DNA from: Candidatus Dadabacteria bacterium UBA1144
GTDB taxonomy: Bacteria; Desulfobacterota_D; UBA1144
Assembly (NCBI GenBank): GCA_905181755.1
Contig: CAJIYY010000024.1
Location: forward strand, 1-44,964
DNA: 44,964 nt
Reading direction: 5' to 3'
In this document: positions 4,450 to 40,332 of the stretch, piece by piece
How the letters are laid out: every line of letters starts with the position of its first letter
How positions within the stretch are numbered: position 1 is the first letter of the stretch
The notes under the pieces: model-generated
Told to the model about the DNA's origin: nothing
Database searches by the model: none
Seen by the model: only the letters and a program-made list of their open reading frames with translations
Made by a program: the position numbers and the translations under genes

Positions 4450-5664
4450 TTAAAAATCCTCTTTTTGTAATTCAGAAAAGGTTTTGAAGGAAGCTATTTT
4501 TAGATTTTTATTATCATACAGGTCCAATCTACCACTTTTTGAAATCTTAATTCTCAAATCAAATTTATCGTCATACTTATTTTTTCTACTAGACATAACT
4601 GAAATAAAACCTTGAGAAGTAAAAAACTCTTTTACCTCAAGTGACGAAATGAAGGATTCTATCTCCGCTGACTCAACAACAACGATAGGTGCTCCTAATT
4701 CATCACTCTTTATAGTTTTAATTAAAGGTAAAATATTGATTCCAAGTCCGACTGCAGGGAAACTGTTTCCATATCTTCCTATGAGTTCATCATATCTTCC
4801 ACCAGATAAAACTATTTCTGAAATTTCTTTAACCGCAATATCAAATGTCATTCCCGAGTAGTAATCAAAGTTCTTAACATCCAAGAAATCTACTCTTAAA
4901 TCCAAAGAAGAATTTGCCCTTGATAATATCTCTGCGATTGAATTTATTCTAACAATATTCTGTCTAATCTTAGCTGGTAATGATTTAGACAAAATACTCT
5001 TGTTCTGCATTAAGGGTATTAAATATTCTTTAATGAATGCCTTTTGAAGACTATTTAATCTATTATCAAGACCAAATTTTTTAATTGATTTGTAATCTTT
5101 CTTATGAAAGAGCAACTTTATATCCTCTTTAATTGGGTCCAAAGAATCAAATATAAAATTTAGCAATATAGAAGAATTCAGTGTTACGACCTGATTAGTA
5201 AATCCCAATTTTTTTAGAATAGACGTTCCCAATAGGATGATTTCCAAGTCTGATTCAATCGAATTGGAACCAATAAGTTCGCAACCAACCTGAAAAATCT
5301 CTCTCTTCGTTCCGGTTTCCTTGTAATTGTTCCTTACGACTCTTTCATTGTAGGTGAGGCGTAGTGGAATTTTCTCATTCTTGTAATTGCTAGATACATA
5401 TCTAGCTATCTGCGGTGTTACATCAGACCTCAAGCCCAAAACGTCCCCATTAAGTGGGTCAATGAATTTTATTGTCTTATTTATTGTTTCTTCTTTTAAT
5501 CCAACATTTAGGGAATTAATATTTTCAAAAATAGGTGTAATTATCTTCTCAAATCCCCACAACTCAGACTCCTCTAATATAACAGAGGATATAAAATCAA
5601 TTTTTTTTACATCTTTAGTTGTGTATTCCTTAATTCCTACTGGCAGCGAAAACGATTTTATCAT
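4450..5664 (-). CDS. hisZ: ATP phosphoribosyltransferase regulatory subunit (HisRS paralogue HisZ); a true HisRS is not fully excluded
   Basis: Class II HisRS-like fold (GGRYDELIGRYG, FPAVGLGINI), but the motif 2 region is degenerate (YNERVVRNNYKETGTKREIFQVGCELIG). It sits immediately upstream of purA, a common hisZ-purA arrangement. Confidence 0.6.
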   Translation of the reverse strand: MIKSFSLPVGIKEYTTKDVKKIDFISSVILEESELWGFEKIITPIFENINSLNVGLKEETINKTIKFIDPLNGDVLGLRSDVTPQIARYVSSNYKNEKIPLRLTYNERVVRNNYKETGTKREIFQVGCELIGSNSIESDLEIILLGTSILKKLGFTNQVVTLNSSILLNFIFDSLDPIKEDIKLLFHKKDYKSIKKFGLDNRLNSLQKAFIKEYLIPLMQNKSILSKSLPAKIRQNIVRINSIAEILSRANSSLDLRVDFLDVKNFDYYSGMTFDIAVKEISEIVLSGGRYDELIGRYGNSFPAVGLGINILPLIKTIKSDELGAPIVVVESAEIESFISSLEVKEFFTSQGFISVMSSRKNKYDDKFDLRIKISKSGRLDLYDNKNLKIASFKTFSELQKEDF

Positions 5665-7262
5665 CCAAAAATTACCTGATCTACACTTTTAACTTCGGAC
5701 AAATTAGCAATAGCTTCCAAGGTGTCCTCCGAAACCGGTGAGTCAACCGAGATGAAAGCTAGAGCGTAATCTTCCTTCTCAGAGTTCTCCTGCCTACTTA
5801 GATATAACCTGGCTATATTTATATTTTTCTCCCCCAGAGCTGCTCCAAGAAGTCCTACGACTCCTGGTTTGTCATAGTTTTGTATCATTAGAATATTCCC
5901 TTCTGGTATCAGGTCTATAGGCTGGTTGTTTAATTTTATAAATCTTGCTTCTTTCATCCCAAAAAGAGATCCAGAGATTGATAGTTCTTCTGAATCGGTC
6001 TTTATAATAACCGAAACAAGACTAGAAAACTCATCCTCATTAGATACTTTAGCTTCAGTAAGCTTTATACCTCTTTCTTCCGCAATCAAGGGTGCATTTA
6101 CGTAAGTAACAGGAGCGCTCATTATAGGAGATAGATACCCCTTTAGAGCAGTTATGGTCAATGGTGCCACATTAGTCTCAGCGACATTCCCACTATATTC
6201 AACAATAATTTCCTTAACGCCTGATTTACATGTTTGACCCATAAAAATTCCAAGTTTTTCACATAGGTTTAAATATGGACTAATCTCATTTAAAACCTCG
6301 TTGCTCATCGAAGGCATGTTTAAGGCATTTGATACAACTCCGTCGTTTGCAAACTCAATAACTTGTTCAGCCATAGCAATTCCAACTTTCATCTGAGCTT
6401 CCTGTGTTGAGGCTCCCAAGTGTGGTGTAAAGACTACCCCTTCTTGAAGGTTAAAAATTGGCGACTTAAAATCGGGTGGCTCAGGATTAAAGACATCTAT
6501 AGCAAGGCCTCCAACTTTTCCTGATGAAATAGCTTCTGCGATATCTTCCTCGTTTACTATGCCGCCCCTCGCGCAATTAATAATCATAACTCCGTCTTTC
6601 ATCATTTGTATAGAACCCTTAGAAATAAGATTCTTCGTTGTAGAAGTTAGAGGAGCATGGACAGATATAACATCTGAAAGCTTAAATACTTCATCCATAT
6701 CCACCAGTTCTACTGGCATGTTTAAATTAGTACCTTTTGCGATATATGGATCATGTGCAATAACCTTCATCTTTAAACCAAGAGCTCTTTCCGCAACCAG
6801 TCTTCCTATGTTACCCATTCCAATCAATCCAATAGTTTTTCCATACAACTCTGTTCCTTGAAACTTTGGACGCTCCCACTTCTTAGACTGCATAGACATA
6901 TGAGCTTGAGGAGTTTTCCTTGCTAAAGAAAAGAGGAGAGCAATAGTGTGCTCGGCGGTAGTGATAGCGTTTGCCGAAGGAGTATTCATTACAATAATTC
7001 CTTTTTTCGAAGCTGCTTTTATATCAACGTTGTCAACACCAATCCCAGCCCTTCCAATTAGCTTGAATCCCTCATCCAACAACTCGACAATTTCAGAATC
7101 AATAGTTGTAGCGCTTCTTATTATTACCGCTTCGTAATTATTTATTATTTTCTTAAGCTCTTCTCTATCTGTCTTCTTTCTAACATCAACCTCTATGTTC
7201 TTATGATTAGCAAACAAAGCTAATCCCTCTTTTGAAAGGCCGTCAGTAATTAATATCTTCAA
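5661..7262 (-). CDS. serA: D-3-phosphoglycerate dehydrogenase, long form with C-terminal regulatory domains
   Basis: NAD-binding GLIGMGNIGRLVA, catalytic-region blocks (NCARGG, TPHLGAST), and a 533-aa length consistent with the ASB+ACT long type. Its 3' end makes a 4-nt overlap with the hisZ start. Confidence 0.9.
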   Translation of the reverse strand: MKILITDGLSKEGLALFANHKNIEVDVRKKTDREELKKIINNYEAVIIRSATTIDSEIVELLDEGFKLIGRAGIGVDNVDIKAASKKGIIVMNTPSANAITTAEHTIALLFSLARKTPQAHMSMQSKKWERPKFQGTELYGKTIGLIGMGNIGRLVAERALGLKMKVIAHDPYIAKGTNLNMPVELVDMDEVFKLSDVISVHAPLTSTTKNLISKGSIQMMKDGVMIINCARGGIVNEEDIAEAISSGKVGGLAIDVFNPEPPDFKSPIFNLQEGVVFTPHLGASTQEAQMKVGIAMAEQVIEFANDGVVSNALNMPSMSNEVLNEISPYLNLCEKLGIFMGQTCKSGVKEIIVEYSGNVAETNVAPLTITALKGYLSPIMSAPVTYVNAPLIAEERGIKLTEAKVSNEDEFSSLVSVIIKTDSEELSISGSLFGMKEARFIKLNNQPIDLIPEGNILMIQNYDKPGVVGLLGAALGEKNINIARLYLSRQENSEKEDYALAFISVDSPVSEDTLEAIANLSEVKSVDQVIFG

Positions 7263-7366
7263 TATATTCCTCCGATGTTACAAAAGAAAAATATATTTTA
7301 GCAATCAAGCAATGTCAATCAAAAGGATTAATTGTAAAAGGAAATAGGTAGGTATAAAATTTAACA

Positions 7367-8095
7367 ATGGGCGCAGAAGAAAAAATGACATTCCTAGAAC
7401 ATTTTGGAATTTTGAGAAAAAGCTTAATAAAAATTGTTTTGTTAATGATCATATTGTTTATTCCCGCATTCTATTATAGAGAGCTAATAATGGAGTTAGC
7501 GCTCGTACCGATATCAAGCTCTTTACCTTCTGACTCTAAAATTATTTTTACAAGACCAATCGAAGGACTATCGTCGAATGTCAGAATATCATTCCTAGCA
7601 AGCTTTATTTTAACGTTCCCTTTAATTATTTATGAAATATGGTCATTTATTAAGCCAGCTCTTTATGAACAAGAGAAGAAAACCTCTGCAATTGTTATTA
7701 TTTTAGGAACGTTACTATTTTTTATTGGTGCATTTTGTTGCTATAAATTTGTCGCACCAGTTACTTTTAATATTCTGATTAATGAATATTCTTCAGACTC
7801 TATTACAGCTCTTCCAAACATAAGCGATACTCTAGGATTCTTATCCTCACTAATTCTCAGTTTTGGAATAATATTTGAATACCCTCTAATAATTTATATT
7901 CTTTCTAAATTTGGAGCTACGTCTGGAAAATTTCTATCCTCAAAAAGGAAATACTCTATACTTATTTCTACTGTAATTTCGGCCGTCCTAACCCCAACAA
8001 CCGATGTATTTTCTATGCTTTTCATGCTAATTCCACTAGTTGTGTTCTATGAAATAGGGATACTTGTTTCATACCTAACCTATAAAGAGGATTGA
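7367..8095 (+). CDS. tatC: Twin-arginine translocase subunit TatC
   Basis: N-terminal FLEHFGILRK matches the TatC hLxELRxR-type start. Six hydrophobic segments and about 240 aa. Confidence 0.85.
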   Translation: MGAEEKMTFLEHFGILRKSLIKIVLLMIILFIPAFYYRELIMELALVPISSSLPSDSKIIFTRPIEGLSSNVRISFLASFILTFPLIIYEIWSFIKPALYEQEKKTSAIVIILGTLLFFIGAFCCYKFVAPVTFNILINEYSSDSITALPNISDTLGFLSSLILSFGIIFEYPLIIYILSKFGATSGKFLSSKRKYSILISTVISAVLTPTTDVFSMLFMLIPLVVFYEIGILVSYLTYKED

Positions 8096-8143
8096 AAAGA
8101 ATGGGAAAAATTGTAATCTTACTTAATTATTTCGGAGGAACAA

Positions 8144-9286
8144 ATGGATTTGGTTTCATCAAAACATATAGAAGAATTTATACCAGGGGAAATACTGTAT
8201 CATGGAGCCATCCAGGTTACCCCATTTAGAAATAAGGAATATATCAAAAAGTTTAGTAAAAACTACGAGCTTGGCACAGACTCAAAACTAGCTCAATTTT
8301 TAGGATATGTTGACCCAAACATTGAAATTAAAAAACAAAATTTTGGAATTAAGACTCCAGATTTAATAAGCCAAGGATATCTTTTTAATGTTGGATTTGG
8401 ACTTAGCGTGCATGACATATCATTTAATGCTATTGCCAATCTCTCTTATAAAAATTTAAGGTATGGAATTCCCGCTTACGAAGGCGATATTTTATTCGCT
8501 ACATCAGAAGTGTTGGGTATTGAAGTTAAGAAGGATGGCGCCACCAATGGCTCTGTTCAAGTTCGTACAACAGTAACTAATCAGGACAACAAAATTGTTC
8601 TTGAATACGTTAGGCAAGTTTTAGTTAGAGCATCCAAAGGAAAAACACTTGATGCTCAGTCCAATGTTCAGGACCAGCCTGAAAGAATACATCTTACAGA
8701 AAACATGATGCCCTTGGAGTTTAAAGGTTTACCAAAGAGCTTAAATGGTGCACCGGTAAAGTCTTTTGAAGACTTTGAGATAGGCAAGACTTATGATGGA
8801 AATTTTTCAAAATCAATAAATCTTGTCGATTTTAGCTGGCTACAGATTTCTACTCTCAATGATGCAAGTGTTCATCATACTCCAAAATCAAACTTTATTG
8901 GATATGGAGGGGCTATCAAATCTACTGTTGAAGGAGAGGTAAGCTCTCATCTTCCATATGCATACTTTCTGGGAATGAATTCAGGCTCACATGATGCGCC
9001 CACATACCCAAGTGACATAGTTCAATCAATATTTGATTCACAAAATAAAGATGATGAAAAGATTATTGGCTCTTTTAAAGTTGAAAATAAAGATGCTATA
9101 GAGAGCAGAGAAGATTTTGGAATTTTAACTATCCAACTTTGTGGTGACAAGATTGTTACAGAGGCTGGTCTAAGTGCTTATGAAAAAGCTGGGTTTAAGG
9201 GCATATCAAAAATTCAAGATAGTAGAATTAGAGTTTTAACTATGGAAATGGTTGTAGCGGTTCCAACTAGGAAGGCTTTTCAATAA
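8144..9286 (+). CDS. Double hotdog-fold (MaoC-like) acyl/enoyl-CoA dehydratase-hydratase family protein; substrate unknown
   Basis: Two halves each resemble MaoC/hotdog modules (first: PAYEGDILFATSEVLGIEVKKDG..VQVRTTVTNQDNKIVLEY; second: FEDFEIGKTY...LNDASVHHT). A strong GGAGGA SD precedes the ATG. The stop overlaps the start of the CoA ligase. Confidence 0.5.
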   Translation: MDLVSSKHIEEFIPGEILYHGAIQVTPFRNKEYIKKFSKNYELGTDSKLAQFLGYVDPNIEIKKQNFGIKTPDLISQGYLFNVGFGLSVHDISFNAIANLSYKNLRYGIPAYEGDILFATSEVLGIEVKKDGATNGSVQVRTTVTNQDNKIVLEYVRQVLVRASKGKTLDAQSNVQDQPERIHLTENMMPLEFKGLPKSLNGAPVKSFEDFEIGKTYDGNFSKSINLVDFSWLQISTLNDASVHHTPKSNFIGYGGAIKSTVEGEVSSHLPYAYFLGMNSGSHDAPTYPSDIVQSIFDSQNKDDEKIIGSFKVENKDAIESREDFGILTIQLCGDKIVTEAGLSAYEKAGFKGISKIQDSRIRVLTMEMVVAVPTRKAFQ

Positions 9287-10980
9287 TGTCTAAGAAAAAA
9301 TTCCCAATCAAAGACTTGGCTTATCCAACAACCTATAAGTGGAAAAATAAATTCGACTATGATTGGAATACAAAAAGCGATCAAAGAAATTGGACACTTC
9401 CTAAGGTTCTTAGAGATCAGGCTAGTTCCAACCCAAATAAAGATTTTTTACAATTCAGCAACAATAAAGCTCTAACCTTTTCTGAAGTTAATATTCAAGC
9501 AAATAAAATTGCAAACTCTTTGGATAAGCTGGGTATAAAGAAAACAGATAAAGTATCTGTTTATATGCCAAACTCGCTAGAGATATGTCTCGCCTGGTTT
9601 GGGATTTTAAAAAATGGGTCCATCATGGTTCCTGTTAATACCGCCTATGTGATGGATTTTCTTCAATATATAATTGAGAGCTCAGACTCTAAAATAATCA
9701 TCATTGCCGAAGAATATTTAGAGCGCCTGGCAAATATTCAAGATAGAATTCCAAAGATTGAAAAAGTAATTGTATGGACTAGAAACAATGAGGACAATTT
9801 TGATTCACATGGTTTCAACAAAATTGAATCCATGTCATGGAATAAATTCATATTAAATGGCTCAGAAGATGAGCCGAAAGTTGAAATTACACACATGGAC
9901 CATGCTAGACTCATGTATACATCTGGTACCACTGGTAAATCTAAAGGTGTTGTTAGGCCATGTGCTGCAGATTATTCATCTGCACAGAATTACTCCTCTA
10001 TTATGGATCTCACAGAAAGTGATACTGTTTTTACATGTTTACCTCTTTTTCATTCTAATGCAATGGTTATGGGAGTCTATCCTGCTATGATAAGCGGCTG
10101 CAAAGTTGTAGTTGAAGAGAAGTATTCTGCGAGTAAATTTTGGAAATGGATGAAAGATTATGAAATAACCAAATTCAATCTTGTTGGAGTAATGTCTTAC
10201 TTCATGTGGAATGCCCCCAAAGTTCCTGAAGAGAAACAACATAAAGTAGAGCTGGTCCTTGGAAGCCCTGCACCTCACGATATCATTGAAGAATTTATGG
10301 ATAGATTTAACATTCTTTTTACAGAAGGATATGGACTAACAGAAGTAGGACAATGTACTTTTACTAGGCCTAATGAGCCTTTTAGGGTTGGATCTTGCGG
10401 AAAAGAGTCTCCAGGATACGAAATAAAAATTGTTGATCCTGAAACTGATAAAGAACTTGAAAGGGATACGCCTGGTGAACTTGTTTTGAGACCAAGAATT
10501 CCAAATATCTGCCTTCATTATTATTATAAAATGCCTGAAAAGACAGTTTCAGACTTTAGAAACTTATGGTTTCATACTGGGGACTTGTGCAGAATGGATG
10601 AGGATGGCTACATATTTTTTATGGATAGGGTGAAGGATTACATAAGAAGAAGAGGTGAGAATATTAGCTCTTTTGAAGTTGAAAATCTCATATCTACCCA
10701 TCCAAGCATCGAAGAGTCCGCAGCAATAGCAGTGAAGCTAGACGAACAAGGGCGTCATTCAGAGGATGAATTAATGATTGTGCTTGTTCTAAAAGAAAAT
10801 ATGGACCTTAGTCCTGTAGATTTAATAGAGTTTTTAAAGCCAATAATGCCTAAATTTATGATTCCAAGATTTGTAAGATTCCGAGATTCTCTACCAAAGA
10901 CACCTACCAATAGAGTTCAAAAGGTGAAGCTAAGAGAAGAAGGAATAACCAAAGACACATGGGATTCCCTCAAAAAATAA
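9286..10980 (+). CDS. AMP-dependent acyl-CoA synthetase/ligase (CaiC-like subgroup)
   Basis: AMP-binding motif MYTSGTTGKSKGV, plus LPLFHSNAM, GYGLTE, HTGDL and a C-terminal PKTPTNRVQK lysine motif. Confidence 0.85.
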   Translation: MSKKKFPIKDLAYPTTYKWKNKFDYDWNTKSDQRNWTLPKVLRDQASSNPNKDFLQFSNNKALTFSEVNIQANKIANSLDKLGIKKTDKVSVYMPNSLEICLAWFGILKNGSIMVPVNTAYVMDFLQYIIESSDSKIIIIAEEYLERLANIQDRIPKIEKVIVWTRNNEDNFDSHGFNKIESMSWNKFILNGSEDEPKVEITHMDHARLMYTSGTTGKSKGVVRPCAADYSSAQNYSSIMDLTESDTVFTCLPLFHSNAMVMGVYPAMISGCKVVVEEKYSASKFWKWMKDYEITKFNLVGVMSYFMWNAPKVPEEKQHKVELVLGSPAPHDIIEEFMDRFNILFTEGYGLTEVGQCTFTRPNEPFRVGSCGKESPGYEIKIVDPETDKELERDTPGELVLRPRIPNICLHYYYKMPEKTVSDFRNLWFHTGDLCRMDEDGYIFFMDRVKDYIRRRGENISSFEVENLISTHPSIEESAAIAVKLDEQGRHSEDELMIVLVLKENMDLSPVDLIEFLKPIMPKFMIPRFVRFRDSLPKTPTNRVQKVKLREEGITKDTWDSLKK

Positions 10981-10983
10981 CTT

Positions 10984-12333
10984 TTATTTATCCCAAGGAT
11001 GTTTCTTCTCGGGTTTCTGCGTATAAGGATTTTCTTTATCAGGATGAAAATACTTGAAGGTATTAACGTGTTGATCAGTATAAGAACCTGGAGGATAATA
11101 TTTATCATAAAAATCCAAATCCATATTCTGAGCCTGGAAAACTAATCTCATATACATTGGATCGACATAAGCTGGAAAGGATCCATAGGTATTGTAAATA
11201 TAGTCGGCAACAGACTTAACAATCTCATTTGTTGTATCGGTAGGTCTTGGTGCCTTAACTAAATGTTTATCTGGCTCTGCATAAGGAAAAGGTTTTTTAC
11301 TATCCCAAGCAGCCCATTTATGTTCATCCATTTTATCAAAAGCTTCTGACATATCTTTGTAATAAGGAGGGCAGTACCCTTCAAAAATTCCATCTTTACC
11401 AACAGGTCTAGTAGGACCAGACTTTGGTTGTTCAAATCTAAAACCTAACCCTTTAAAGAGTTCCGGATTTGATCCTAGGGTAAACCTTGGTATAAGACCA
11501 GTGAATGTCCAACCACCTAACCCAAGAGCTTGAAGTGCTAGTGACATATTCTGGCAAATAAATGCTTGTTCAACATTGAGACCTGTAAGTATTCTGACCT
11601 CAAGATCATAGAGTGACATTTTGACTTCTTCTTTTATTCTTCCAGAAGCAATCCATTTGTCTTGACCGCAAGAGCGATTATTTTTTTCATCCCAAATATT
11701 GAAGGCATAAGTACTACTACAATAAAGTGTTAGTAAATTTAAATACTCCTCAGTTATATCAGTGACAGGAATAAATGTTGTAGTCCCTGGCTTGTTCGTA
11801 TTCCATTGATTAAAGTCAAAGAGGCCTGGCATCTTGTCTGGCAAATTAGCCCTACCGTCTTCAAGCTTAACAAGTCCTTCTCTATATAGTTCTAACAATC
11901 TGTCAATTTTATCATTAACATCTAGCCTAAAAAAGACATCTAGTTCTTTGTCTTTTGGCAACATGTTTTTAACATCCACATAATAAAGACCAGAGTCATT
12001 AGTAAAGAATAGCTCTGTACCGTGGTTATTACATGCAGATGGCCAAGTTCTACCGGTCCATTGACACAGCAAATCAATTCCATTCTCTGGTGGTAAATCT
12101 GCTAAACACAATCCTGTTAATCCTGTTCCTGCCCAAACCAGCATAGCTTCCTGAAACTCTGTCAAAGGGACTGGATCTATTTTTGATTTATAGCCTAGGG
12201 AACTATCGGATGGTAGCTCCATACCCAAACCAAACCTTCTGGATCTTCTATTAAAAATAGCTTCGAAGAGTGGATATTTTAAAGCTGCTTCGTAATTTAT
12301 TTTACCTTTAGTTTTTCCATTTTTTTTTGTCAT
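10984..12333 (-). CDS. SagB-type / nitroreductase-superfamily-like protein with long insertion and C-terminal extension; function unknown
   Basis: Nitroreductase-fold hallmarks: LFEAIFNRRSRRF near the N-terminus, RTWPSACNNHGTELFF..GLYYV (PSAG-like block), and QNMSLALQALGLGGW at about residue 261-275. I prefer the ATG at 12333, preceded by GAGGTG, over the upstream ATG at 12372 in the ORF track. Confidence 0.55.
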   Translation of the reverse strand: MTKKNGKTKGKINYEAALKYPLFEAIFNRRSRRFGLGMELPSDSSLGYKSKIDPVPLTEFQEAMLVWAGTGLTGLCLADLPPENGIDLLCQWTGRTWPSACNNHGTELFFTNDSGLYYVDVKNMLPKDKELDVFFRLDVNDKIDRLLELYREGLVKLEDGRANLPDKMPGLFDFNQWNTNKPGTTTFIPVTDITEEYLNLLTLYCSSTYAFNIWDEKNNRSCGQDKWIASGRIKEEVKMSLYDLEVRILTGLNVEQAFICQNMSLALQALGLGGWTFTGLIPRFTLGSNPELFKGLGFRFEQPKSGPTRPVGKDGIFEGYCPPYYKDMSEAFDKMDEHKWAAWDSKKPFPYAEPDKHLVKAPRPTDTTNEIVKSVADYIYNTYGSFPAYVDPMYMRLVFQAQNMDLDFYDKYYPPGSYTDQHVNTFKYFHPDKENPYTQKPEKKHPWDK

Positions 12334-12393
12334 ACGGACACCTCGCTTGTCAACTAAGTAAGTATAAATCAAAAGAATGGGTTTGAAAATGAA

Positions 12394-12822
12394 TTAGGCT
12401 AAAGCAAGCTTTTTAGTTTCTTCTCTTTCTAGCTCTCTTATGGCTAATTTAACAGTTGAGATTCCTAGAGTGGAGCATTTTGGACGAGAGAGAGCAAGCT
12501 CTTCACCAATAATATCGGTGATAACCTCAGGCCCCATGCTTAAGACTTCTTCTTTGGACTTCCCGATTACCACTTCAGATATAATCGAAGTACCTGCCTG
12601 ACTAACAATACAACCCTCACCTTCAAACTTAAAATCGGTAATAATTCCATCTTGGAATTGAAGACAAACAGTAACAATATCTCCGCACCCTGGGTTGCCA
12701 CCATTCTGCTTAATATCACATTTGTGCGCATCTTCACTTACATCATTTAGAGAACCCGCATTTCTGGGGTTCTCATAATGATCTAGTATAAAGTCCATCA
12801 ATTCCTGCTTATCTTTTGTCAA
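12394..12822 (-). CDS. sufU: SufU/IscU-type Fe-S cluster scaffold / sulfur acceptor (NifU N-terminal-like)
   Basis: ILDHYENPRN, NPGCGD, GEGCIVSQAGTS and SRPKCS give the three conserved Cys ligand blocks of SufU-type proteins. A GAGGA SD lies in the 11-nt gap after the rhodanese stop. Confidence 0.8.
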   Translation of the reverse strand: MTKDKQELMDFILDHYENPRNAGSLNDVSEDAHKCDIKQNGGNPGCGDIVTVCLQFQDGIITDFKFEGEGCIVSQAGTSIISEVVIGKSKEEVLSMGPEVITDIIGEELALSRPKCSTLGISTVKLAIRELEREETKKLALA

Positions 12823-12833
12823 TAAAATCCTCT

Positions 12834-13676
12834 TTATTTTTCAATTGGTGCTTGAACCAAATTTCCCCACTCGGTCCAAGATCCATCATAATTTTTGACG
12901 CTCTTATATCCAAGCAAATAGGTTAAAACAAACCAAGTGTGTGAAGATCGTTCACCTATTCTACAATAAGCAATAACATCATCCTCAGGCTTAAGCCCAG
13001 CTCCACCTTGATATATCTCTAATAATTCATCAGCAGACTTGAATGTACCATCCTCATTTGCGGCAGTAGCCCACGGTACACTTTTTGCATTAGGTATATG
13101 ACCGCCCCTAAGCGCACCTTCTTGAGGGTAAGCTTCCATATGCAACATTTCACCACTAAACTCTTTTGGTGATCTAACATCAATCAAAGAACCCAAAGCA
13201 GCGCTATGTTCTTTAACTTCTTCTCTAAAGGCTCGAATATTCAAATTAATATCGCTGACTTTATAGTTTGTATTTTCTGAAGCTGGAACGTCTCTAGTCA
13301 CGGGCTTATCTTCTTGAACCCATTTCTGTCTTCCACCATTCATAATAAGACATTTGGCATGTCCATATATTTTAAATGTCCAAAGAGCATAGCATGCCCA
13401 CCAATTGCTTTTGTCACCATAAAACACTATCGTATCTTCAGGTGAAATACCTTTAGAAGACATAAGTTTTTCAAAATTTTCCTTATTAACATAGTCTCTT
13501 ATTAGACTATCCTGAAGCTCAGTCTCCCAATCTAATTTAATTGCGCCTTCTATATGACCAATGTCATACAAAAGAATATCCTCGTTAGATTCAACTATCT
13601 TAATTCCTGGCTTATCTTTATTCTCAAGAACCCAATCGGTTGAAACTAACAACTCGGGATTTTTATATTCTGCCAT
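12834..13676 (-). CDS. Two-domain rhodanese (thiosulfate/3-mercaptopyruvate sulfurtransferase family)
   Basis: Active-site loop [13 protein letters not shown]-terminal [10 protein letters not shown], and a tandem rhodanese architecture of 280 aa. A GGAGG SD lies at 13683-13687. Confidence 0.85.
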
Positions 13677-13688
13677 TTTATTCCTCCA

Positions 13689-13715
13689 TCTGACTTTACT
13701 ACAAGTGAAGTCAGA
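13689..13715 (-). promoter_or_regulatory. 8-bp stem / 11-nt loop hairpin one nucleotide upstream of the rhodanese Shine-Dalgarno; candidate translational or attenuator element
   Basis: Inverted repeat TCTGACTT (13689-13696) / AAGTCAGA (13708-13715). There is no following U-tract, so it is not a classic intrinsic terminator. It lies between the poly-Cys sORF stop and the rhodanese SD. Confidence 0.45.
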
Positions 13716-13746
13716 AAATATTTAAATTTTAATCTTATAACTAGAA

Positions 13747-13836
13747 CTATTTGTAGTTACAACAACACAAGTTTGAGATTCTACAACAACAAGTAGCAGC
13801 AAAGCTAACAAAATTGATACTTACTGTCTTAGACAT
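13747..13836 (-). CDS. 29-codon poly-cysteine small ORF (leader peptide or small Cys-rich peptide): MSKTVSINFVSFAATCCCRISNLCCCNYK
   Basis: Hand-translated: AGGAG (revcomp of 13843-13847), 6-nt spacer, ATG at 13836, TAG at 13749-13747. Six UGU Cys codons fall in two triplet runs. It is co-oriented with, and 70 nt upstream of, the rhodanese gene. Confidence 0.6.
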   Translation of the reverse strand: MSKTVSINFVSFAATCCCRISNLCCCNYK

Positions 13837-13952
13837 AACAAACTCCTAATCTTTAATTTGTAACTCAAAGAGGAAAGGCATTGAATAACACCTTTGCCCT
13901 ATTTAGCAATTCTTTAAAGTCGCTGCAATTAGAGTTAAATGACGACATTAAT

Positions 13953-13982
13953 ATTATAGCACTTAAATAAAATAAAAATCAA
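13953..13982 (-). promoter_or_regulatory. Putative sigma70-type promoter with extended -10 for the sORF-rhodanese-sufU operon
   Basis: On the minus strand: TTGATT (13982-13977), 18-nt spacer, TGcTATAAT (-10 at 13958-13953). An AT-rich background makes chance matches likely. Confidence 0.35.
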
Positions 13983-14024: not shown

Positions 14025-14267
14025 ATGAGTGAAAATGAAGAAAAACCAGTTGAAGAGCCTTCTAGTAAGGCCAGCACTGAGCCTGAAGCTTCAGAAGCAG
14101 AGTCTAGCGAAGTAGGTGAGGAATCACATACTGTACTAGATTACCCCGATAGAGTTCCCAATGCTGAAAGAGGTGCAAGCCATTCCCATTCATATGTGAT
14201 GCTTAAAATATTAGTTCTTATGATATTTTTTTCTCTACTAATGGCCAAATTTACTTCACCTTTCTAG
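14025..14267 (+). CDS. Hypothetical small protein: acidic low-complexity N-terminus plus a single C-terminal transmembrane helix
   Basis: 80-aa ORF. The E/S/P-rich first 35 residues are followed by VMLKILVLMIFFSLLMAKF. It fills what would otherwise be an unusually long non-coding gap. The SD is weak and I recognise no homology. Confidence 0.4.
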   Translation: MSENEEKPVEEPSSKASTEPEASEAESSEVGEESHTVLDYPDRVPNAERGASHSHSYVMLKILVLMIFFSLLMAKFTSPF

Positions 14268-36661: not shown

Positions 36662-36733
36662 TGGCCGTGGGAAGAATCGAACTTCCGACATACGCCTTAT
36701 GAGAGCGTCGCTCTACCCCTGAGCTACACGGCC
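36662..36733 (-). tRNA. tRNA with CAT anticodon (elongator tRNA-Met; a lysidine-modified tRNA-Ile2 cannot be excluded)
   Basis: The reverse complement folds as GGCCGTG-TA-GCTC-AGGGGTA-GAGC-G-ACGCT-CTCATAA-GGCGT-ATGTC-GGAAG-TTCGATT-CTTCC-CACGGCC-A. The 1:72 G-C pair and the lack of a GGG/CCC anticodon stem argue against an initiator. Confidence 0.88.
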
Positions 36734-39726: not shown

Positions 39727-40332
39727 ATGAAATTTATTATTGTACCTTTTAAAAATTATAAATCGGCCAAATCAAGAATGAGAAAAGATTTGTCGGATGA
39801 AGAAACTGAGAAAATCGTCGAGAACATGTTGAGACACGTGTTAACAGAAGTATCAAAATCTCAAATGTCAGATGCAAGCTTCCTTATAACTAAGGATGAA
39901 GAAGCTATTTCTCTTGCGAAACAAATTGGGGTTGAAACAATAGAAGAAAAAGAGCAGATTAACGAGAGCACCTCTGTGGATTTGGCAACGAAGATATTAA
40001 TCAGAAGGGGAGCTACAAGTGTTCTAAGGATTCCTGGTGACCTTCCTCTTCTAACATACAATGACATAGACATTGTCTTTAGAGAGTCAATAGAGACAAA
40101 TTCTTGCATACTTGTACCTTCAAAAAGCGGAAAAGGAACAAATGCTATCCTAAGAAGGCCTCCTGATATTATCAAGTCTTGTTTTGGAGAAGACAGTCTA
40201 AGAAAACATAAGAAAGAGTTTGATAGAAAACAAGTTCAATATAAAATAGTCAAAAATAAAAATATTGAACTCGACTTGGACTGCCTAGAAGATCTTCAAG
40301 AATTTAAAAATCTACATAAAAAAATTAGCTAA
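39727..40332 (+). CDS. cofC: 2-phospho-L-lactate guanylyltransferase (CofC/FbiD)-like nucleotidyltransferase
   Basis: IVPFKNYKSAKSRM (the IPvK..AKSRL motif), IPGDLPLL and GKGTNAIL (dGGTNaL-like) blocks, about 200 aa. Another MobA-like NTP transferase cannot be excluded. Confidence 0.5.
   Translation: MKFIIVPFKNYKSAKSRMRKDLSDEETEKIVENMLRHVLTEVSKSQMSDASFLITKDEEAISLAKQIGVETIEEKEQINESTSVDLATKILIRRGATSVLRIPGDLPLLTYNDIDIVFRESIETNSCILVPSKSGKGTNAILRRPPDIIKSCFGEDSLRKHKKEFDRKQVQYKIVKNKNIELDLDCLEDLQEFKNLHKKIS

Follow-up and report, generated by a model that had tools for sequence, protein, structure and literature searches.

A divergent, unannotated family of the nitroreductase superfamily in Dadabacteria, with a member encoded in a sulfur-relay operon behind a candidate cysteine-sensing leader

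INTRODUCTION

Does a nitroreductase-like protein that is encoded behind a cysteine-rich short open reading frame (sORF) have to be a peptide-modifying enzyme? This question is raised by a locus on contig CAJIYY010000024.1 of Candidatus Dadabacteria bacterium UBA1144, of which we analysed the whole stretch of 44,964 nucleotides (hereafter the window). The gene under study, at positions 10984-12333 of the minus strand, encodes a protein of 449 residues, which we call the target. An earlier reading made from the letters of the DNA (the sequence-only reading) had described it as an orphan SagB-type dehydrogenase-like protein with an atypical architecture, a type of enzyme that acts on peptides made by ribosomes and modified after translation (RiPPs). 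It left two ways to account for the lack of a YcaO partner: either the fold now serves another chemistry, or the partner is encoded elsewhere.

Here, we found that the target belongs to a divergent, unnamed branch of the nitroreductase superfamily that no curated model covers. We propose that it is a nitroreductase-fold enzyme in a cysteine-controlled sulfur relay, in which it would redox-process the relay persulfide, and we give this complete statement a probability of about 0.5. Its wider part, i.e. that in Dadabacteria a new nitroreductase-superfamily family, distinct from SagB, has a functional link to a sulfur relay, we regard as highly probable.

RESULTS AND DISCUSSION

The target gene and its sequence blocks

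The target gene starts with an ATG, about 7 nt downstream of a GAGGTG Shine-Dalgarno sequence. An alternative start, TTG at 12372, would add 13 residues; gene calling on identical public contigs likewise arrived at 449 residues. The parts of the gene to which we refer below are the following:

10984..12333, minus strand: target coding sequence, divergent nitroreductase-superfamily core plus family-specific C-terminal domain
12235..12249, minus strand: codons of R29-R30-S31-R32-R33, the N-terminal motif of FMN (flavin mononucleotide)-phosphate type, conserved in the family and matching HRSIRHF of NfsA
12013..12042, minus strand: codons of P98-S-A-C101-N-N-H104-G-T-E107, the predicted flavin-side active-site segment
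11509..11553, minus strand: codons of Q261-N262...G271-L-G-G-W275, the hallmark nitroreductase block (end of the central helix and strand)
11029..11376, minus strand: codons of the C-terminal domain, residues ~320-435, with the motifs PPY, YGRFP and Q..HxD..FY

The blocks on which the sequence-only reading had built its assignment are present where it placed them, namely F27-NRRSRRF-34, W97-PSACNNHGTELFF-110 followed by G115-LYYV-119, and Q261-NMSLALQALGLGGW-275. It was likewise correct that the protein ends in ...KPEKKHPWDK and that its C-terminal part is rich in aromatic residues and proline: the last 174 residues contain 17.8% F/Y/W and 11.5% Pro, compared with 10.9% and 4.4% in residues 1-275.

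A divergent branch of the nitroreductase superfamily

Which fold does the target adopt? Taken alone, its sequence matched no Pfam model, PF00881 included, even at E <= 10, and no NCBIfam model at E <= 0.1; among the sequences of the PDB, phmmer searches with the target and with a narrow family profile gave nothing useful. Homologs are plentiful. A word-indexed search returned 1,986 of them, all unnamed or 'hypothetical' and none with a Pfam domain, the closest ones lying in related genomes with identities of up to 96%. An exhaustive profile search (E <= 1e-3) found 1,710 representatives at 50% identity, 200 of them below 1e-30, and the family amounts to ~2,000 clusters at 90% identity. Its cultured carriers include Rhizobium, Rhodobacter, Nonomuraea and the archaeon Haladaptatus, in which the annotation is again 'hypothetical protein'. 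Conservation was counted over 63 sequences for the broad family and over 32 sequences for the subfamily that includes the window (subfamily A1).

Structure prediction, a check suggested by the sequence-only reading, was done for the target alone and gave a nitroreductase fold. The AlphaFold 2 (AF2) model built from 91 diverse sequences reached a predicted local distance difference test score (pLDDT) of 95.1 and a predicted template modelling score of 0.93. It replaced an earlier AF2 model from 32 close sequences (pLDDT 81, poor at residues 73-103), which had no Foldseek match below 1e-3. In a Foldseek search of the PDB with this model, the best 50 matches all belonged to the nitroreductase superfamily, with template modelling scores on the target of 0.5-0.6. 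They were led by BT_0217 (8cqs, 1.6e-5), BF3017 (3hoi, 2.2e-5) and Reut_A1228 (3hj9, 1.7e-4), followed between 1e-3 and 2e-2 by BmdC, NfrA1, ThcOx, Ava_2154, CLA-ER and McbC.

Sequence profiles point to the same superfamily. The search against PF00881 that the sequence-only reading had suggested gave no match for the target itself, although 12 of the 63 distant family members match this model directly (best 4.7e-6). Through the Q261-W275 block, the broad family profile reaches Frp (1bkj), NfsA, NfrA1 and AlbA in the PDB (best 5.6e-5), and hhalign aligned the family profile to Escherichia coli NfsA with a probability of 80%. As judged by the AF2 model, the family profile and the transitive Pfam matches, the target is a member of the FMN nitroreductase superfamily. 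The nitroreductase-like fold of the sequence-only reading is thus upheld by Foldseek, by the family profile and by the alignment to NfsA.

The architecture is indeed atypical, as had been claimed. It combines an insertion of ~100 residues with a conserved C-terminal domain of ~120-170 residues. The insertion has conserved residues of its own across the family (N175, W177, N180, G183, P189 and D215). The C-terminal domain (residues ~320-435) was modelled at a pLDDT above 90 and carries the family-wide signature P322-P323, Y383-G-R-F-P387, Q400, D405 and Y409; in the broad family, P322/P323 are kept in 59, G384 in 56, P387 in all 63, Q400 in 53, D405 in 53 and Y409 in 60 sequences. Because these positions are conserved across the family, the C-terminal 'extension' is an integral, family-defining domain. 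With other members of the superfamily (PF00881), the target shares the core fold, the N-terminal Arg/Ser FMN-phosphate motif, the R-x-Ar-P-S segment (Ar, aromatic) and a central helix that ends in QN and is followed by a GLGG strand. It differs from the usual nitroreductases in its roughly twofold length, in the ~100-residue insertion, in the ~120-residue C-terminal domain and, within its own subfamily, in an invariant Cys/His pair in the active-site segment.

Defining this family matters in its own right: it is very large and unannotated, its fold is clear, and a conserved signature and candidate active-site residues are now at hand.

Predicted flavin site

Which residues might hold a flavin? 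Family-wide conservation falls on the RRSRR motif (R30 in 59/63, R33 in 60/63), on R95-x-x-P-S, on N262 (59/63) and on the GLGG strand (G271 in 63/63). The RRSRR motif lies in register with HRSIRHF of NfsA and in the region of Arg82 of McbC, and G271-G273 lie in register with the GLGG of NfsA. R95 shares its register with R117 of McbC, a ligand of the FMN phosphate (PMC6395948). The retention of these residues of FMN-phosphate type suggests that the target binds a flavin.

The Cys/His pair, C101 and H104, is found in all 32 sequences of subfamily A1. In an hhalign comparison with NfsB, P98-N102 were placed on P38-N42 (PSSTN), and hence C101 on the active-site residue T41, with a probability of 3%; in the alignments to NfsB and McbC, each a single sequence, the residue-level register is reliable only within the central helix. 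On the strength of the motif register and of this alignment, we speculate that C101 and H104 may line the flavin.

Relation to SagB-type dehydrogenases

Is the target a SagB-type enzyme? It has several traits in common with the SagB/ThcOx/McbC group (TIGR03605): the superfamily, the PS-x7-E-h-F spacing (h, hydrophobic), the shared register of R95 and McbC R117, and a comparable structural distance. The motif R-x-W-P-S-x7-E-L-F of the target is spaced exactly as R-P-Y-P-S-x7-E-V-F of McbC, and the two segments, GRTWPSACNNHGTELF in the target and RRPYPSGGALYPIEVF in McbC, have identical spacing. One could take from this that the target is an azoline dehydrogenase that oxidises thiazolines on a poly-Cys peptide, with the YcaO protein encoded elsewhere in the genome. 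Apart from the spacing, such a reading could invoke the azoline oxidases BmdC, ThcOx and McbC among the structural neighbours (E 1e-3 to 2e-2), the 7 of 63 distant relatives that touch TIGR03605 weakly (E >= 7e-4), and the Cys-rich sORF of the operon.

The target itself does not match TIGR03605 (NCBIfam scan, E <= 0.1). The hhalign probability to McbC was 5.9% with the A2 profile and 0.2% with the A1 profile, versus the 80% for NfsA. McbC employs Lys201-Tyr202 as its catalytic pair and Arg233 to stabilise N1 of FMN (PMC6395948). With the helix register anchored on E213/E255 and on Q219-N220/Q261-N262 (McbC/target), these three residues fall on D243, L244 and W275 of the target, and the subfamily keeps D/E, L and W at these positions. 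Unlike SagB, ThcOx and McbC, the target therefore has neither the Lys-Tyr pair nor an equivalent of Arg233.

The genomic surroundings agree with this difference. In positions 984-43839 of the window, for which precomputed Pfam calls were available on identical public contigs, we found housekeeping genes only; YcaO, SagC/D, radical SAM and lanthipeptide enzymes are absent from these calls, as the sequence-only reading had stated. A tblastn search for McbD and McbB in the window and 99 further loci (1.45 Mb) found none, with a sensitivity that is limited, McbD being divergent. Whereas a sulfur relay is conserved around the target, no YcaO or scaffold partner lies nearby. Moreover, the sORF is missing from orthologous operons at 85-92% identity, and where it occurs it conserves its Cys codons and stop and not a leader region, which is the opposite of the usual RiPP precursors.

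In view of the missing model match, the replaced catalytic and FMN-contacting residues and the lack of a YcaO match at the loci searched, we rejected the SagB assignment. The target is not a SagB-type peptide-modifying enzyme and is filed here as a member of an unannotated nitroreductase-superfamily family. The SagB/RiPP reading is largely refuted already, and a thiazoline oxidase with a YcaO encoded elsewhere is very improbable. Of the two explanations offered at the outset, the evidence favours recruitment of the fold for different chemistry. A mis-annotation of the target as a gene of RiPP biosynthesis, specifically of thiazole/oxazole-modified microcins (TOMMs), is thereby avoided.

A conserved sulfur-relay operon

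In which company is the target encoded? Its best genome matches, at 85-96% identity, lie in metagenome-assembled genomes (MAGs) of marine Dadabacteria (such as TMED58 and relatives of UBA1144), and the best 80 loci all come from MAGs of Dadabacteria or 'Thermodesulfobacteriota'. For a survey of the context, the loci were searched with the neighbours from the window and all neighbouring open reading frames (ORFs) were clustered; the survey covered 79 Dadabacteria loci, 63 of them with full flanks. Two enzyme genes precede the target in the window:

12834..13676, minus strand: two-domain rhodanese (thiosulfate sulfurtransferase of SseA/CysA2 type; PF00581; loop CRIGERS), first enzyme gene of the operon
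12394..12822, minus strand: SufU-like (NifU_N) gene directly upstream of the target (PF01592, 1.5e-22; TIGR01994 SufU, 2.7e-21, below the cut-off of that model)

Both had been named in the sequence-only reading, and both are indeed present upstream on the minus strand. The label 'orphan' does not apply to the target, which sits in a conserved sulfur-relay operon. In the PDB, the rhodanese matches 1uar (3e-109), SseA of Mycobacterium tuberculosis (3hzu, 1e-103) and CysA2 (3aax, 4e-93). A same-strand rhodanese gene lies upstream in 42 of the 79 loci, and the SufU-like gene stands directly upstream of the target in 42 as well. A SufE gene is inserted between the two in 30 loci. On the other side, a Pyr_redox_2 flavoprotein gene directly follows the target in ~30 of the 79 loci, and a gene for a NapH-like membrane 4Fe-4S protein comes after it in 30. 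When only the 63 loci with full flanks are considered, rhodanese and SufU occur together in 37, the Pyr_redox and NapH-like pair in 28, and both sets in 21. In one locus (L076), the target, Pyr_redox and NapH-like genes overlap at their stop and start codons, and no relay genes lie upstream. The marine clade to which the window belongs is without the SufE, Pyr_redox and NapH-like genes.

A part of this arrangement has a biochemical precedent: in M. tuberculosis, the SufE-like neighbour Rv3284 activates SseA (PMC12375888). The same order, an SseA-type rhodanese and then a SufE-family gene, recurs in ~30 loci of soil Dadabacteria. The Dadabacteria relay goes beyond this pair in that it runs on to a SufU-like protein and the nitroreductase-like enzyme; in the window it does so without SufE. 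Our literature searches gave no link between nitroreductase-like proteins and relays of rhodanese, SufE or SufU.

A poly-Cys sORF as candidate leader

Is the operon controlled by cysteine? The sORF described in the sequence-only reading is present, with 6 Cys among 29 codons. At the 1.16% Cys of the window's proteins, this composition has a probability of ~9e-7 per ORF. The elements of the leader region are the following:

13953..13982, minus strand: promoter-like site (TTGATT, 18 nt, TG-TATAAT), the best match of the region (10/12, extended -10); overall counts of such sites are not above chance
13747..13836, minus strand: poly-Cys sORF of 29 codons with two CCC runs and an AGGAG Shine-Dalgarno sequence, a candidate cysteine-sensing leader peptide with conserved Cys runs
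13735..13762, minus strand: leader hairpin 2, in which the tail of the second Cys run pairs just past the sORF stop; 9 pairs are kept in most of six sequences
13690..13714, minus strand: leader hairpin 3, directly 5' of the rhodanese Shine-Dalgarno sequence (13681-13688), with two covarying pairs (GC<->AU)

The sORF lies 70 nt upstream of the rhodanese gene. Its occurrence is limited to the window and the five relatives closest to it (L007-L011); it is absent from the next loci (L012-L020), from the orthologous operons at 85-92% identity and from the soil relatives. Among the six sequences, the AGGAG/TGGAG Shine-Dalgarno sequence before the ATG is conserved. The N-terminal half of the peptide is variable, while the nucleotide sequence is kept in the runs of Cys codons, in the distance between them and in the stop codon. 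We set aside the reading of the sORF as a RiPP precursor on this pattern and on the orthologous operons that do without it. Since the Cys runs and the stop are conserved and the rest is variable, we read the sORF as a regulatory leader; it is apparently a cysteine-sensing one, a reading that fits the pattern of conservation better than a precursor peptide does.

The RNAalifold consensus of the six sequences contains three hairpins. Covarying pairs occur in two of these, and each of the Cys runs is part of a hairpin arm. Pairing of these hairpins with the rhodanese Shine-Dalgarno sequence is not demonstrated in the consensus fold. A scan with Rfam of the region upstream of the operon, in the window and the five relatives, found no riboswitch.

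A comparable system exists in mycobacteria, where the poly-Cys sORF Ms5788A, through a translational mechanism that responds to cysteine, attenuates a cysA2-containing operon (bioRxiv 10.1101/834739). The window sORF resembles the mycobacterial leaders (Ms5788A/Rv0815A) in being short, in having its runs of Cys codons at the end and in lying directly upstream of an operon. The rhodanese behind it is a close homolog of CysA2/SseA, as in the mycobacterial cysA2 operon, and hairpins lie beside the downstream ribosome-binding site. It differs from them in having a Shine-Dalgarno sequence, where they are leaderless, in having two runs of three Cys instead of one long tract, and in occurring in another phylum and there in one shallow clade. 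By this analogy, cysteine would control the operon. If the leader is functional, it would extend cysteine-responsive attenuation by ribosome stalling beyond mycobacteria.

Upstream of the sORF, we also observed a hairpin at 13872-13896 (minus strand) in which the six closely related sequences differ by changes that look compensatory, followed by the invariant stretch CTTTCCTCTTTGAGTTACAAA. The TTCCTC within it is complementary to the GAGGAA of the rhodanese Shine-Dalgarno sequence ~180 nt downstream.

Proposed function

How could these elements work together? We speculate that, when charged tRNA-Cys is scarce, ribosomes would stall in the leader and the expression of the operon would rise. The rhodanese would draw sulfane sulfur from a donor such as thiosulfate and hand the persulfide to the SufU-like protein. 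The presumed flavoenzyme, which has Cys101 and His104 in the segment that borders the flavin in other nitroreductases, would accept the persulfide from the relay and reduce it or otherwise process it by redox chemistry; both this redox role and the persulfide substrate are what we infer for the target here. The electrons for a reduction could come from the partner reductases, and the outcome would be a supply of sulfide or of sulfur for clusters without consumption of cysteine.

These steps do not carry the same weight. That the role of the target is persulfide reduction specifically is a tentative suggestion, with the odds clearly against it. We find it somewhat less likely still that marine Dadabacteria, and in fuller form those of soil, possess a complete cysteine-sparing sulfur route composed of a stalling leader, a rhodanese, SufE/SufU and a dedicated persulfide reductase or processor, which would provide sulfide for Fe-S clusters or for the synthesis of cysteine with no cysteine desulfurase. 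The chemistry itself would have a parallel in the flavin-dependent CoA-persulfide reductase, in which a single Cys beside the flavin reduces a persulfide to sulfide. The parallel would be one of function only, because the fold of that enzyme (a pyridine nucleotide-disulfide oxidoreductase) is unrelated to that of the target. A survey of Dadabacteria published in the ISME Journal reported that the scored functions of sulfate reduction and sulfide oxidation are missing in both marine pelagic clades (PMC8115339). Such a loss would fit organisms that have to scavenge reduced sulfur, without proving that they do. Should the link to the relay be functional, persulfide trafficking would gain an electron-transfer step that it has been missing, and the link could explain how streamlined marine heterotrophs supply sulfur to their clusters at low cysteine.

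Several observations weigh against the proposal of a cysteine-controlled, persulfide-processing enzyme. On the side of the protein, the target itself has no match to any curated model, and the placement of C101 beside the flavin would depend in part on the low-confidence (3%) alignment. The Cys/His pair is moreover not family-wide: in the broad family, Cys is present in 19 and His in 21 of the 63 sequences, and Asp takes the place of Cys in 24. On the side of the context, 14 of the 63 full-flank loci, including one in a closed genome of 2.67 Mb, are without any recurrent neighbour; the reductase partners of the soil relatives are missing from the window; and other subfamilies have different contexts. 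The leader, finally, is confined to the six sequences mentioned. We found no U-tract after hairpin 3 and no transcription terminator in the leader, and the stability of its fold relative to shuffled sequence is not exceptional (z = -0.64).

Other members of the family and a possible stress function

Is the sulfur relay a common context of the family? The more distant members indicate otherwise. A Dadabacteria paralog with 55% identity, in which PCSC replaces PSAC (P0079 group, loci L087-L090, ~4700-11400), follows genes for a Fur-family regulator, a rubrerythrin/ferritin and a luciferase-like oxidoreductase, and precedes those for a 106-residue protein, a cytochrome c peroxidase, OsmC and an FNR-like reductase, an apparent peroxide-stress cluster. 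In Rhizobium phaseoli (plasmid pRetR611c, L094, 1807-8323), a distant member comes last in a co-directional block with a 942-residue peroxidase-family protein, a cytochrome c and a 195-residue protein, with a tyrosinase gene nearby. Another locus (L003, 1130-3787) holds two family paralogs of 440 residues in tandem, 12 nt apart, flanked by an aldehyde dehydrogenase gene and by an AMP-binding gene with an SSF transporter gene; from this arrangement, a heterodimer is possible. In L091, an AMP-binding gene is co-directional with a distant member, and one distant cluster combines genes for a thiolase-like, an OB-fold and an AMP-binding protein. In one metagenomic protein of 863 residues (P0183), an oxygenase domain of MpaB/Lcp type (PF09995, 7.9e-27, residues 101-315) is fused to the family domain (430-858). 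Annotated homologs on plasmids added only 'hypothetical protein' in mixed contexts. Because the distant subfamilies have such other contexts, the family is probably functionally diverse, and the link to the sulfur relay is specific to the orthologous group of the window.

These contexts bear on a different explanation, by which the target would be a stress-type NAD(P)H:flavin, quinone or nitro reductase (like NfsA, Frp or NfrA) or a supplier of reduced flavin to an oxygenase, and its place beside the relay would reflect co-regulation under thiol or oxidative stress. It would agree with Frp, NfsA and NfrA1 being the best sequence-profile matches, with the paralog that stands between a luciferase-like monooxygenase and a cytochrome c peroxidase/OsmC downstream of Fur and rubrerythrin, and with the Rhizobium operon of peroxidase and cytochrome c. 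A gene of the HpaB/4-hydroxybutyryl-CoA-dehydratase family lies near the target in 6 loci, directly downstream of it in three (L022, L026 and L031), and the SseA-SufE pair of M. tuberculosis is itself tied to redox homeostasis (PMC12375888). However, typical flavin reductases have ~200-250 residues and neither the insertion nor the C-terminal domain, and NfsA and Frp are without the invariant Cys/His pair in the active-site segment. The tight and often overlapping arrangement of the target gene with the SufU gene upstream and a separate NAD(P)H flavoprotein gene downstream suggests instead that the target receives its electrons from a partner, which would not suit an enzyme that oxidises NAD(P)H itself. 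We consider a stress reductase rather unlikely.

Neighbouring genes and a possible role in acyl-CoA metabolism

On the far side of the target, the window carries two genes that converge on it:

8144-9286, plus strand: MaoC-like hydratase gene (Pfam/NCBIfam), with weak matches to RipB/Ich and mesaconyl-CoA hydratase
9286-10980, plus strand: AMP-forming acyl-CoA ligase gene (Pfam/NCBIfam), convergent with the target

The two overlap at their stop and start (ATGA at 9286), and the stop of the ligase gene is 3 nt from that of the target gene. The marine clade keeps the pair beside the target, and four other loci (L004, L024, L027 and L030) have it in different arrangements. Could the target be a redox enzyme, such as an enoyl/enone reductase or a dehydrogenase, that acts together with this ligase and hydratase on a CoA-activated acid, perhaps in the catabolism of an organosulfur acid that feeds the relay? 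AMP-binding ligases flank the family in at least 4 lineages and in several orientations (convergent in the window, L004 and L024, divergent in L030, co-directional in L003 and L091). Genes next to family members also encode MaoC-like hydratase, HpaB/4-hydroxybutyryl-CoA-dehydratase-family, thiolase-like and aldehyde dehydrogenase proteins, and the enone reductase CLA-ER is among the structural neighbours. In the window, however, ligase and hydratase are encoded on the opposite strand and hence in a separate transcription unit. The ligases of different lineages are not orthologous (32% identity for L003), ~30 soil loci have relay and reductase genes and no adjacent ligase, and AMP-binding genes are so common that some adjacency is expected by chance. 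A functional link of the pair to the target is unproven, and such a role in acyl-CoA metabolism appears to us quite improbable.

Other features of the window

Next to the operon leader and divergent from it, an ORF of 80 residues (14025-14267, plus strand) overlaps with uvrA, which lies on the opposite strand, at the 3' end of that gene. The N-terminus of its product is acidic and rich in Ser and Glu, and a transmembrane helix lies at the C-terminus. A similar ORF occurs at another locus (L036, 3363-3602), and on the public contigs the ORF of the window is called as a gene without a Pfam match; its product is apparently a small, conserved membrane protein.

Farther away, the window carries a CofC gene (PF01983, the guanylyltransferase of F420 biosynthesis; 39778-40332, plus strand) and an F420_oxidored gene (PF03807; 40694-41347, minus strand). 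These domain assignments are a hint of coenzyme F420 being made or used by this Dadabacterium; the coenzyme, if present, could bear on the choice of cofactor by nitroreductase-fold and luciferase-like proteins of the lineage. Rfam further identified two tRNA genes, at 192-263 and 36662-36733, both on the minus strand.

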